A program made the translations under genes and the position numbers. The notes under the pieces are model-generated. The model saw only the letters and a list, made by a program, of their open reading frames with translations, searched no databases and was not told where the DNA came from. 49,062 nucleotides of DNA. Source: a virus (taxonomy: Duplodnaviria > Heunggongvirae > Uroviricota > Caudoviricetes). Where the stretch lies: positions 1-49,062 of IMG/VR virus record IMGVR_UViG_2917891409_000001, one strand, 5' to 3'. Below are positions 46,295 through 49,062 of the stretch, in pieces (within the stretch, counting starts at the first letter, position 1; every line of letters begins with the position of its first letter).

Positions 46295-48658
46295 GTGGAT
46301 ATGGCAGCAGTAAAAATCTCAGGTGTGCTGAAAGATGGTGCGGGAAAACCAATACAGAACTGCACTATTCAACTGAAGGCAAAGCGTAACAGCACCACGG
46401 TACTGGTGAACACGGTAGCCTCTGAAAATCCGGATGAAGCCGGGCGTTACAGCATGGATGTTGAGTATGGCCAGTACAGCGTCACCCTGCTGGTTGAAGG
46501 TTTTCCGCCTTCACATGCCGGGACCATTACCGTCTATGAAGGTTCCAGACCAGGTTCGCTGAATGATTTTCTCGGTGCCATGACGGAAGATGATGTCATG
46601 CCGGAGGCATTGCGTCGTTTTGAGGAAATGGTGGAAGAAGCGGCACGCAACGCCGAAGCCGCCTCTCAGAGCGCAACGGCGGCAAAGAAATCCGAAACTG
46701 CAGCGGCATCATCGAAGAACGCGGCGAAAACCTCAGAAACGAATGCAGCTAACAGCGCACAGGCGGCAGCGGCCTCACAGACTGCATCGGCAAACTCCGC
46801 GACAGCAGCCAAAAAATCAGAAACCAACGCGAAAAACAGCGAGACAGCAGCAAAGACGAGTGAAACCAACGCAAAGTCCAGCCAGACGGCAGCGAAAACC
46901 AGCGAAACGAATGCTAAAGCCAGTGAAACTGCGGCAAAAAACAGCCAGGCTGCAGCAGCCCAAAGCGAGAGCGCGGCAGCCGGTTCTGCGACTTCAGCTG
47001 CTGGCTCAGCAACTGCTGCGGCTAACAGCCAGAAAGCTGCAAAGACGAGTGAAACTAACGCAAAGTCCAGCCAGACGGCAGCGAAGACCAGCGAAACGAA
47101 TGCCAAAGCCAGCGAAACTGCGGCGAAAAACAGTCAGGATGCAGCAGCCCAAAGCGAGAGTGCCGCAGCTGATTCTGCAACAGCGGCAGCTAATAGCCAA
47201 AAAGCTGCAAAAACCAGTGAAACTAACGCAAAGACGAGTGAAACAAAAGCAGCAGCTAGCGAGACAGAAGCAACGTCAGCCGCAACAAGAGCAGAGAATG
47301 CAGCCCGGATTGCAGAAGATGCCGCTGATCCTGCTTCTGTCCCTCCGCTTCCTGATATCTGGCTACCCTTGAATGATTCTCTGGAAGCGATAACAGGGTA
47401 TGCGCCGGGCTATAAAACAATAACCATCGGCAGTGATGAAATAACAATGCCTGTTAATGGCATATGCCAATTTAGCCGCGCTTCATCAGCAACGTATATT
47501 GATAAGTCCGGGCATATTACCGTAGCAGCTAATAACGTTCCTCGCTTTGAAAAATATGGTTTGCTGATAGAGAATCAGCGAACAAACATGTTCGTAAATA
47601 GTTTTAATCCTGATGCGTGGAATAAAAGCGGTGGTATATCTGTAACATCATCAACAGATGAATTTGAGTTTAAATATGGACGTTTCACGGTAGGAAGCGA
47701 GATAGCAGGAACGACAACAGGGAGAAATATATGCACAGTTGCTGGTAATAAAGGCATAGATGTGACTGGCGATGATCAGTACAGTAAAGGTCCGTATGTT
47801 ACCGCGTCGTTCAGGGTAAGAAGTGATCTCAATGTTCGCGCACGTATCCGTTTTGAACGGTATAACTCGGAAGGATACACTTTCCTTTGTGACGCCTATT
47901 TGTCATTACAGACTCATGAACTACAAATTACGGGTGGTAATGCCCAGCTATTAACAGCAAACTTTGAAATCGACCCTGGAAGTGGATGGATATATTTTCA
48001 GGCAACACTGAAATGTCTGCCAGAATGGGGAATGGTTGGTACGCAGCTGCAAATTGCAGCCGACAGAGCTGTGGGGTCTTTTGCAACAGGTGACTGGATA
48101 GAAGTAACCACCCCGCAATTCGAGTATGGTGCTTGTGCAACTTCCTTCATCATAACGACAACAGAGCCAGCGACTCGTGCATCAGATTTATGTAAATTTC
48201 CGCTGATGAAAAATATGTATACCATGCCTTTTACGTTCATGGTGGAGGTCCATAAAAACTGGTTTATTTCTCATAATGCTGCACCGCGTGTCATTGATTC
48301 AGAAAATCACCAGTCCGGAGGCCCATTTATTATGGGGTTTGGTTCTTCTGGAACTATTAGTCAGGACGGTTATTCGTATTGCGATATAGGCGGGGCTAAC
48401 CGACGTGTATATGAGTCATGCGGAGTAAGAGAGCTTGTTATGGGATTCAGGGTTAAGGCTGACGGCATGACATGCTCATTTGCAAATAAGCATATAAGCA
48501 CAGAAACAAAAACAGTATGGAAATATATTCGTGAAGCTGCTGTGATTCGTATCGGGGGACAAACGACGACAGGATTACGACACCTTAATGGTCATATAAA
48601 AAACCTCCGTTTCTGGAACAGAGCATTGTCAGATACGCAGCTTAAGGAATACGTATAA
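46295..48658 (+). CDS. stf: side tail fibre protein (Stf-like) with repetitive Ala/Ser/Thr/Lys shaft and divergent C-terminal tip
   Basis: N-terminus AVKISGVLKDGAGKPIQNCTIQLKAKRNSTTV... as lambda Stf; SETNAK repeats; C-terminal about 450 aa not lambda-like. Confidence 0.8.
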   Translation: MDMAAVKISGVLKDGAGKPIQNCTIQLKAKRNSTTVLVNTVASENPDEAGRYSMDVEYGQYSVTLLVEGFPPSHAGTITVYEGSRPGSLNDFLGAMTEDDVMPEALRRFEEMVEEAARNAEAASQSATAAKKSETAAASSKNAAKTSETNAANSAQAAAASQTASANSATAAKKSETNAKNSETAAKTSETNAKSSQTAAKTSETNAKASETAAKNSQAAAAQSESAAAGSATSAAGSATAAANSQKAAKTSETNAKSSQTAAKTSETNAKASETAAKNSQDAAAQSESAAADSATAAANSQKAAKTSETNAKTSETKAAASETEATSAATRAENAARIAEDAADPASVPPLPDIWLPLNDSLEAITGYAPGYKTITIGSDEITMPVNGICQFSRASSATYIDKSGHITVAANNVPRFEKYGLLIENQRTNMFVNSFNPDAWNKSGGISVTSSTDEFEFKYGRFTVGSEIAGTTTGRNICTVAGNKGIDVTGDDQYSKGPYVTASFRVRSDLNVRARIRFERYNSEGYTFLCDAYLSLQTHELQITGGNAQLLTANFEIDPGSGWIYFQATLKCLPEWGMVGTQLQIAADRAVGSFATGDWIEVTTPQFEYGACATSFIITTTEPATRASDLCKFPLMKNMYTMPFTFMVEVHKNWFISHNAAPRVIDSENHQSGGPFIMGFGSSGTISQDGYSYCDIGGANRRVYESCGVRELVMGFRVKADGMTCSFANKHISTETKTVWKYIREAAVIRIGGQTTTGLRHLNGHIKNLRFWNRALSDTQLKEYV
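46852..47215. repeat. in-frame tandem direct repeat (about 186 bp x2) within stf
   Basis: near-identical nucleotide blocks beginning AAGACGAGTGAAAC(C/T)AACGCAAAGTCCAGCCAGACGGCAGCGAA. Confidence 0.6.
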
Positions 48659-48694
48659 TGCGGGATATAACATTACGATTCGATAACAGAGAAC

Positions 48695-49062
48695 TGTAGT
48701 GGTCAAGTAATATTGGCCACGGTTTTACAGTAAAAACGGTATCTGTTCTCTGATTCTTCCGGCGTCAACCCACCGTTGTAATGGTGAGGCCTGACGCTAT
48801 TGTAATAATTCAGGATATAACCGCTAATTTGTTGCCGGGCCTCGTCCTTGCCTACGTAACCATCCGTCGGCACCCATTCTGTTTTCAGACTGCGGAAGAA
48901 GCGTTCCATAGGACTGTTATCCCAGCAGTTTCCCCGTCGGCTGACACTTTGCTTTATCCTGTAACGCCAGAGAAGCTGTTGATATTTCAGTCCTGTATAC
49001 TGACTTCCCTGGTCGCTATGGAACATGACGTCCCGCGGCTGACCACGCACCTCATACGCCAT
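48695..49062. mobile_element. IS3-family insertion sequence, partial (terminal IR at 48695 onward; continues beyond window)
   Basis: TGTAGTGGTCAAGTAATATTGGCCACGG end sequence plus transposase ORF. Confidence 0.65.
48703..49062 (-). CDS. IS3-family transposase OrfB, C-terminal part (truncated by window edge)
   Basis: [21 protein letters not shown] and [15 protein letters not shown] motifs of IS3-family DDE transposases. Confidence 0.7.

Follow-up and report, generated by a model that had tools for sequence, protein, structure and literature searches.

A lambda-like side tail fibre gene without tfa, and the IS3-family element in the small coupled gene that follows it

In the lambda side tail fibre system (Ur-lambda stf/tfa, represented by orf-401, orf-314 and orf-194 in lambda PaPa) the fibre gene stf goes together with tfa, which raises the question of how a lambda-like stf gene should be read when no tfa stands beside it and an insertion sequence (IS) of the IS3 family follows almost directly. 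Such a locus occupies positions 46,295 to 49,062 of the virus record IMGVR_UViG_2917891409_000001 (Caudoviricetes), whose 49,062 nucleotides, analysed over their whole length, we refer to as the window. A preliminary description of the window had offered two answers, namely that tfa and the b region were lost through the insertion or that this fibre tip does not need a separate chaperone. The comparison with relatives led us to a different explanation, to which we assign a probability of roughly 70% as a whole: the locus holds the gene for the proximal subunit of a multi-component side tail fibre, and the IS lies in codon 13 of the small gene that follows it.

An insertion within a small gene coupled to stf

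The stf gene itself is intact, because its product is identical at 774 of 785 residues to Stf of PhiR55_1, an isolated plaque-forming phage recorded on E. coli C. The listed open reading frame (ORF) runs on the plus strand from a GTG at 46295 to 48658 (787 aa); the ATG at 46301 (785 aa), which has a GGAG 6 nt on its 5' side and is the RefSeq start in relatives, is the likely start codon. By aligning the window with uninterrupted relatives and with a full copy of the IS, we set the boundary of the element at 48695 (TGTAGTGGTCAAGTAATATTGGCCAC), that is, 36 nt past the stf stop codon (48656-48658), with phage sequence extending through 48694. The IS end had been placed about 40 bp after stf, and this distance holds, while the gap itself turned out not to be intergenic: the ATG at 48658-48660 overlaps the stf stop codon (TAATG) and opens a frame that runs for 12 native codons up to the IS, which cuts codon 13. 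The insertion is therefore intragenic, and the 36 nt are the start of a conserved gene for an 89-aa protein (phrog_1361, E=1e-30).

In the uninterrupted relatives E. coli JNEC-KY178 (L001), E. coli K56-43 (L002) and PhiR55_1 (L005), stf is followed by this gene in full (270 nt), with the same TAATG overlap. Counting loci with downstream sequence, a homologue of the small gene starts no more than 3 nt from the end of the match in 29 of 29 close relatives, defined as loci with a C-terminal domain 98-99% identical, and in 50 of 50 IMG/VR loci of about 50% identity. The small gene, encoding 89-93 aa, is thus translationally coupled to the fibre gene in all 79 loci. The suggested comparison with uninterrupted relatives therefore gave a clear answer, in that all 79 loci have the small gene directly after the fibre gene and no lambda-type tfa stands beside the fibre gene in the lambdoid relatives.

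The window holds the last 368 nt of the element, including a 119-aa transposase fragment that matches rve, rve_2 and rve_3, as expected of IS3-family transposases. Full copies, for example at 3012-4269 of locus L003, are 1258 bp long, carry a frameshifted transposase and have the ends TGTAGTGGTCAAGTAATATTGGCCAC ... GTGGCCAAATTTACTGTGCCACTACA; their terminal repeats are imperfect, with arms of 26-27 nt that are 81% complementary (TGTAGTGG...CCACTACA) and the TG...CA termini of the family. Copies at 99.7% identity were found by megablast in about 2,000 E. coli genomes, annotated as 'IS3 family transposase, programmed frameshift'. RefSeq gives the element no specific name, and we class it in the IS3 family, IS3 group, with ends that we take to resemble those of IS911. 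It agrees with IS3-family elements in its rve transposase, two-ORF programmed frameshift, TG...CA repeats of about 26 nt and length of 1258 bp, and differs in that only 368 nt of it are present here.

The 12 nt that abut the IS end are alike at two unrelated sites, TAACAGAGAAC|TGTAG in the window (48683-48694) and TAACAGCGAAC|TGTAG in L003 (3000-3011), the latter adjoining a type VI secretion system locus; this likeness may reflect chance or a target preference. Other damage is seen in related prophages: in locus L022 the distal fibre ORF is lengthened (363 aa) and IS66-type ORFs come immediately behind it, and in the complete genome H2 (NZ_CP178656.1) an IS2 lies inside the stf region.

Position 49062 of the window coincides with the end of contig PDIH01000072.1 (GCA_004745335.1, 184,579 bp), with which the last 12,762 nt are identical. 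An exact look-up of the 785-aa protein returned three contigs, and the two others, from GCA_005781105.1 and the Logan assembly SRR8835202, carry the same stf and the identical junction and break 20-30 nt into the same IS. Since two other assemblies carry the identical junction, the insertion is real and inherited. That a contig ends inside a multi-copy repeat might suggest a chimeric contig end and hence an assembly artefact; the identical junction at the exact IS terminus in three independent assemblies leaves this explanation next to no weight. The junction occurs in no complete E. coli genome (best coverage 87%) and, in an exact scan, in no species-representative genome (0 hits), and 125 complete E. 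coli genomes show a match of about 98% identity that runs through window position 48697 and then stops.

A predicted lectin-like tip on a lambda-type shaft

By its N-terminal domain (PF08400) and its place after J and lom, Stf is of the lambda type. As the preliminary description had noted from the letters alone, the N-terminus is lambda-like, the shaft contains in-frame tandem repeats and the C-terminal part of about 450 aa differs from that of lambda Stf. Indeed, BLASTP aligned Stf with lambda orf-401 at 58% identity over about 290 aa, including the AAKTSETNA-type repeat shaft, and the N-terminus also matches PDB entry 9e7m ('Tail fiber protein', E=2e-30). Tandem Repeats Finder reported shaft periods of 189 nt (2.2 copies, 81% matches), 42 nt and 21 nt, all multiples of 3. 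The C-terminal 449 aa, in turn, showed no similarity to lambda orf-314 (best E=1.3), and no adjacent tfa of the Caudo_TAP type (PF02413) was found in the window, where a tblastn search with lambda tfa gave a best E of 1.4, in line with the earlier statement that the window has none. Nor did a lambda Tfa or an orf-314 turn up at another place in the window or in relatives. Stf therefore belongs to the lambda Stf family by its N-terminus only. The family is already catalogued, as phrog_1419, under NCBIfam naming and as 'side tail fiber protein' in GenBank phages. Database listings also hold dozens of 'partial' Stf proteins cut at many different points within the tip domain; short-read assemblies evidently often break in stf, presumably because several prophages per genome share parts of it.

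What, then, is the tip? The NCBIfam model NF048003 (GTA_spike_fiber) matches Stf aa 424-629 with 48.3 bits against a cut-off of 36. A profile of the tip family matches the head-spike fibre Rcc01080 of RcGTA at E=4e-34 and, with E near 1e-12, two baseplate proteins, E217 gp45 and Pa193 gp46; the central domain has fold matches to carbohydrate-binding module (CBM) families CBM4/6/22, and the last ~140 aa give weak profile matches to pentraxins. Laminin_G_3 matches 24 of 48 tip-family members (best E=1.9e-11), with the window Stf taken alone remaining below threshold (20.4 vs 27.6 bits). A first AlphaFold2 (AF2) run, on 25 sequences all about 50% identical, reached a predicted local distance difference test score (pLDDT) of 54.6 and was usable for the central domain only. 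The final model, a monomer prediction for which 38 further divergent representatives were added, reached a pLDDT of 91.1 and a predicted template modelling (pTM) score of 0.88 and returned lectin and CBM fold matches, with Foldseek in agreement. The fold so predicted places the tip in the ConA-like lectin/LamG superfamily, and the proposed check for a lectin-like fold thus came out positive, for both a ConA/LamG-like and a CBM-like domain.

Sequence variation follows these domains. When ten diverse homologues were compared, variation peaked in the central CBM-like part (aa 439-598, identity 0.37-0.56), and the flanks of this part (aa 359-438 and 599-778) were conserved (0.61-0.79). The N-terminal flank (47345..47608) is modelled as beta strands with a pLDDT of about 80-96 and probably contributes strands to the ConA/LamG-like domain. 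The tip would accordingly be a conserved ConA/LamG-like scaffold that carries a variable glycan-binding insert, as far as the predicted domain topology goes. The variant in the window is an outlier, with 50-54% identity to every other sampled variant; the others are 59-78% identical among themselves (near-identical pairs excluded) and come from lambdoid, T5-like and P2-like carriers.

Rcc01080 binds the capsular polysaccharide of R. capsulatus (PMC7296036, PMC10218006) and shares with Stf a homologous CBM-like central domain. It differs in being a single chain that is held on the capsid vertices by a Leu-Gly repeat at its N-terminus, whereas the domain described here is inserted in a tail fibre tip and flanked by the ConA/LamG-like domain. 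E217 gp45, from a Pseudomonas phage, and Pa193 gp46 (PDB 8env, 9b45) are unlike Stf in being myovirus baseplate wedge components that are otherwise unrelated. Judging from the predicted fold and from distant homology, the lectin-like head most likely binds a surface polysaccharide, either O-antigen or capsule. The homologue of this first fibre in phage mar004NP2 is a virion protein, detected by mass spectrometry.

The genes downstream and the spread of the module

Having found that a small gene follows stf, we asked what comes after it in uninterrupted loci. In L001, L002 and L005 it is a 'tail fiber domain-containing' gene of 227-346 aa, followed by a gene of ~97 aa, and in the phages Bas32, Bas22 and mar004NP2 the tip gene precedes a 92-aa gene whose start overlaps it, after which comes a fibre gene that likewise has the conserved N-terminus described below. 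The product of this third gene matches PHROG tail fibre families and carries Peptidase_S74 (S74) or Gp34_trimer domains. In 58 of 60 distinct locus combinations it starts with MVTKTVIP..., MATSTVIP... or MATVTTIP..., and although these distal fibres (227, 234, 346, 510 and 574 aa) have unrelated bodies, their first ~17 residues are nearly invariant; the conserved N-terminal peptide, of ~20 residues, is M-[VA]-T-x-T-x-IP-x-DI-x-x-LK. Stf could be a self-sufficient single fibre, with unrelated cargo genes downstream and an IS that leaves fibre function unaffected; the tip does have plausible receptor-binding domains of its own and the stf ORF is untouched by the IS. This is nevertheless improbable, given that the small gene and a fibre gene with the conserved N-terminus accompany the tip in at least five phage groups whose genomes are otherwise unrelated and that the third gene clearly encodes a fibre protein.

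The module is widely distributed. A tblastn search with the tip (449 aa) against 50,697 phage records matched 218, of which 195 over at least 80% of the query. Four of the 218 are ECOR-derived temperate phages at 98-99% identity; the rest, at about 50%, are T5-like phages (Bas32 IrisVonRoten, mar004NP2, VSe12), Drexlerviridae (swan01, tunus), Dhillonvirus and Queuovirinae (Seuratvirus Bas22 KurtStettler), and the module is also present in T1-like and P2-like phages. The protein search added P2-type fibres with Phage_tail_fib and Phage_fiber_2 N-termini (P0075), and a HMMER scan of 1.84 billion representatives returned 2303 clusters (50% identity) at E<=1e-3 and 300 at E<=1e-10. When two prophage groups were compared, the tip was 52% identical, the small protein 31% and the 346-aa distal fibre 90%; this jump from 31% to 90% places a sharp recombination boundary directly 3' of the small gene. 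Some records labelled 'Listeria phage' or 'Campylobacter phage' (OR848352.1, MG065692.1 and similar) carry T5-like coliphage fibre sequences, one of them with 100% identity over a 66-aa query from the Bas32 distal fibre, and are probably mislabelled or contaminated deposits.

Peptidase_S74 is the intramolecular chaperone of endosialidase-type fibres. A search for such a chaperone on the Stf C-terminus, as had been proposed, drew a blank, with no match to Peptidase_S74 (PF13884); in relatives the domain resides on the distal fibre, where it was present in every protein tested from lambdoid, T5-like and Seuratvirus loci. The P2-like prophage L089 has the same tip and small gene, then a 340-aa distal fibre that carries Gp34_trimer and no S74, and then a Caudo_TAP Tfa. 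The chaperone therefore travels with the distal fibre, and the lectin-like tip is accompanied by the small gene only. L089 is also an instance of the module crossing the divide between siphoviruses and myoviruses, with the type of chaperone tracking the distal fibre.

No lambda-type tfa was found beside this fibre gene in the 29 close relatives or in the T5-like and Seuratvirus loci examined. Hence, the idea that the tip manages without a separate chaperone was borne out as far as a lambda-type tfa is concerned, and fell short in leaving the fibre without any partner, as it overlooked the coupled gene of 89-93 aa. The other proposal, by which tfa and the b region fell victim to the insertion, does not stand, as it presumes a lambda layout that this module never had. 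An stf without tfa is a different and very widespread fibre design and not a loss; that tfa appears to be lacking is explained by the module never having had one and by a draft contig that ends inside a multi-copy IS. That this strain has a tfa on the far side of the IS is unlikely, and the idea keeps some probability because the distal fibre of the P2-like relative uses a Caudo_TAP Tfa.

Might the small protein itself be the chaperone? If the 89-aa protein were a dedicated folding or assembly factor of the Stf head, analogous to Tfa, the IS would inactivate Stf, and the distal fibre would attach independently or elsewhere. The tight translational coupling and the co-occurrence with the fibre gene in every locus counted would fit, as would the retention of the small gene where the distal fibre is missing (prophage loci L029 and L034), its faster evolution relative to the tip domain (the 31% and 52% identity given above) and its absence from the virion proteins detected by mass spectrometry in mar004NP2, for which few proteins were detected. 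On the other hand, the protein matched only the PHROG 1361 family and resembles neither Tfa/Caudo_TAP nor a known chaperone, ConA-like and CBM domains generally fold unaided, and this role would leave unexplained why the same N-terminal peptide is found on unrelated distal fibres only in loci with the tip and the small gene. We therefore regard it as somewhat unlikely. The ~97-aa gene after the distal fibre was also considered as a chaperone and rejected, as its product looks like a small membrane protein and the gene is absent from the lytic phages that share the module. This gene (phrog_1443, MKMDITPFLHALCAVAAQ...; L001 11818-12111, L002 9435-9725) always ends the prophage version of the module; its product has three hydrophobic stretches, is probably a small membrane protein and may serve lysogenic conversion or exclusion. 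In K56-43, cdtABC (cytolethal distending toxin type IV) follows the fibre module (L002 10238-12338); these prophages thus hold a cargo site to the right of their fibre genes.

The closest described parallel is the branched LtfA/LtfB fibre of the T5-like phages DT57C and DT571/2 (PMC4728585, PMC10713586), which likewise comprises two tandem fibre genes, has a distal fibre that docks by a short conserved segment at its N-terminus and ends in an S74 autochaperone, and is expected to bear receptor-binding regions on both fibres; the mar004NP2 distal fibre has been called an ltfB orthologue (PMC6563131). The proximal subunits are unlike each other. LtfA ends in S74, docks LtfB through an internal region like phiEco32 gp14 and has no lectin-like head, whereas neither a gp14-like docking region nor an S74 of its own was found on Stf; LtfA (PDB 8hqz_d) matched Stf in a shaft segment only (E=1e-4) and was not among the tip-profile matches. 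Nor has an intervening gene of ~90 aa been described for DT57C. Furthermore, the distal fibre of the DT57C type is characterised by N-terminal 45 aa like phiEco32 gp15, and the 66-aa Bas32 query aligns with DT571/2-type LtfB only from residue 27 on, so the N-terminal peptide of the distal fibre is specific to the module described here. Assignment to the DT57C LtfA/LtfB family was consequently rejected, there being no tip homology, a different LtfB N-terminus and an S74 on LtfA itself. With respect to lambda, the module shares the place after J and lom, the N-terminal attachment domain and the repeat shaft, and differs in its unrelated C-terminal 449 aa, in having no Caudo_TAP tfa alongside and in the 89-aa gene and second fibre gene that follow. 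The literature searched contained no mechanistic description of the three-gene module, only passing remarks on 'two or more proteins' in the BASEL paper (PMC8594841) and on 'two genes upstream of ltfB' in the mar004NP2 paper (PMC6563131).

Reading of the interrupted prophage locus

Taken together, we propose that the N-terminus of Stf (phage_tail_N) would anchor the fibre on the tail tip in the manner of lambda Stf, followed by the repeat-rich shaft and by the last ~450 aa as a lectin-like head that would need neither lambda Tfa nor S74. The conserved part of this head, with or through the small protein, might then serve as the docking site for the N-terminal peptide that exchangeable distal fibres carry. 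The outcome would be a branched or extended fibre with two specificities, which follows the same logic as DT57C LtfA/LtfB and is built from other parts. The second fibre would bring its own folding aid, either a C-terminal S74 or, in the P2-like context, a separate Tfa. By truncating the small gene at codon 13, the IS3-family insertion would part stf from whatever remains downstream, and a polar effect on the distal fibre gene, through uncoupling or silencing, is likely.

Beyond this locus, a distinct docking system for two-receptor, branched fibres could be made up of the lectin-headed proximal fibre, the small protein of ~90 aa and the exchangeable distal fibre with its conserved N-terminal peptide. 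It would be common to lambdoid, T5-like, T1-like, Dhillonvirus, Queuovirinae and P2-like phages and mechanistically unlike the branching of DT57C and phiEco32, and the role of universal socket would fall to the small protein or to the conserved ConA-like domain. We hold this generalization only tentatively, at slightly less than even odds.

Several points weigh against the proposed explanation. The locus of this strain is readable only up to the IS, and the window holds no distal fibre gene. The docking model builds on synteny and conservation, and adjacent genes are co-inherited by linkage, so that their co-occurrence overstates functional coupling. L029 and L034 keep the small gene and lack a distal fibre, which implies that the fibre may do its work with no second subunit. 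For the small protein, searches of Pfam, NCBIfam and the PDB and hhalign with lambda Tfa brought up no relative of known function. Glycan binding is deduced from fold and distant homology, and the structure prediction, being of a monomer, says nothing of the oligomeric arrangement. Lastly, the part of Rcc01080 homologous to the tip has no experimental structure, only residues 2-10 having been resolved (PMC7296036), and the functional link between the two proteins is for this reason one of sequence only.

The context of the locus is that of a lambda-like prophage in the lambda attB neighbourhood, with about 46 kb before the IS. The left end of the window opens with ybhC on the minus strand, followed by a tyrosine integrase (702-3191; int at 2121), and attR and ybhB would therefore be expected beyond the IS if the insertion is a simple one. 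The closest stf relatives in complete genomes lie at another site (dusA in L001). On the 5' side of stf are the fragments of J, then lom (45637-46236; Ail_Lom, E=1e-120) and then a hairpin; this hairpin and a second one at 45588-45607, both strong, terminator-like and with T-runs, flank lom, as expected for an autonomously expressed moron. Compared with the two sister assemblies over 12.4 kb, the window differs in just two single-base insertions, in runs of T7 and A7, which split genes L and J (Table 1). We considered these frameshifts as signs of prophage decay and rejected them as such; they are absent from both sister assemblies and are probably homopolymer sequencing errors.

Table 1. Positions of the features discussed (window coordinates unless a locus is named)
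Feature	Location	Strand	Basis or remarks
Extra T	40220		gene L split
Extra A	44667		gene J split into 42170-44692 and 44754-45569
Terminator-like hairpin and T-run between lom and stf	46263..46284	+	8-bp stem, 7 GC pairs, then TTTTTT
Side tail fibre gene stf, intact, 785 aa	46301..48658	+	ORF; phrog_1419 over full length
Lambda-type N-terminal tail-attachment domain	46307..46696	+	Pfam phage_tail_N, aa 5-134, E=4e-66
Ala/Ser/Thr/Lys-rich shaft, AAKTSETNAK-type motif common with lambda Stf	46801..47251	+	tandem repeats
Conserved N-terminal flank of the tip module (PLPDIW...RFE..GLLIE.QRTN)	47345..47608	+	mean pairwise identity 0.62-0.77
Variable CBM-like jelly-roll domain, putative glycan-binding specificity domain (aa 439-613)	47609..48133	+	NF048003, profile, fold
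Conserved C-terminal ConA-like lectin / LamG-type domain (predicted)	48146..48655	+	
Truncated remnant MRDITLRFDNREL* of the conserved 89-aa gene	48658..48699	+	phrog_1361; native sequence to 48694
Rest of the small gene past the insertion site, uninterrupted form			...AGTTTAACGCAATTGTATATGACAG
IS3-family element end, cut by the contig end	48695..49062	-	terminal inverted repeat 48695-48720; transposase C-terminal 119 aa 48703-49062
Fibre with Phage_fiber_2 repeats and tip module, 92-aa gene, 340-aa distal fibre and Tfa of a P2-like myovirus prophage	L089 1316-5512		IMG/VR UViG_2579778606_000005

The far side of the IS bears on a further alternative, in which the IS brought about a deletion or rearrangement that took away what was left of the small gene, the distal fibre gene and the right end of the prophage, leaving stf as the last gene of a defective prophage. 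That the contig ends in the IS and that no complete E. coli genome has the junction, so that the far side has never been seen, would agree with such an event, and so would the fibre regions of relatives that carry other insertion sequences (H2, L022) or have lost the distal fibre (L029, L034), and the L and J frameshifts. However, IS3-family elements by default insert without further change, the junction coincides exactly with the terminal repeat of the IS, the frameshifts are not found in the sister assemblies that share the junction, and from int to stf the remainder of the 46-kb prophage looks complete. A deletion is thus unlikely, and we retain the explanation by a simple insertion into codon 13 of the small gene.

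The locus is one copy, damaged by an IS, of a fibre module that is common and uncharacterised, and its state is one of ordinary prophage decay. Near-identical copies of stf are abundant and IS3-family hits in prophages are routine, so neither is new; what is less ordinary is that the module apparently lacks a mechanistic description in the literature searched. For the window as such the finding carries little weight, since it concerns a common E. coli prophage fibre variant, which plaque-forming ECOR phages carry at 99% identity, and a common IS. For annotation it calls for caution, in that an IS found behind a prophage fibre gene, at the edge of a contig, tells nothing of what the element removed. 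If the docking model is true, the 20-residue peptide and the small protein of ~90 aa would provide a natural plug and socket for swapping receptor-binding fibres, which would be of direct use in engineering the host range of particles based on lambda, T5 and P2.

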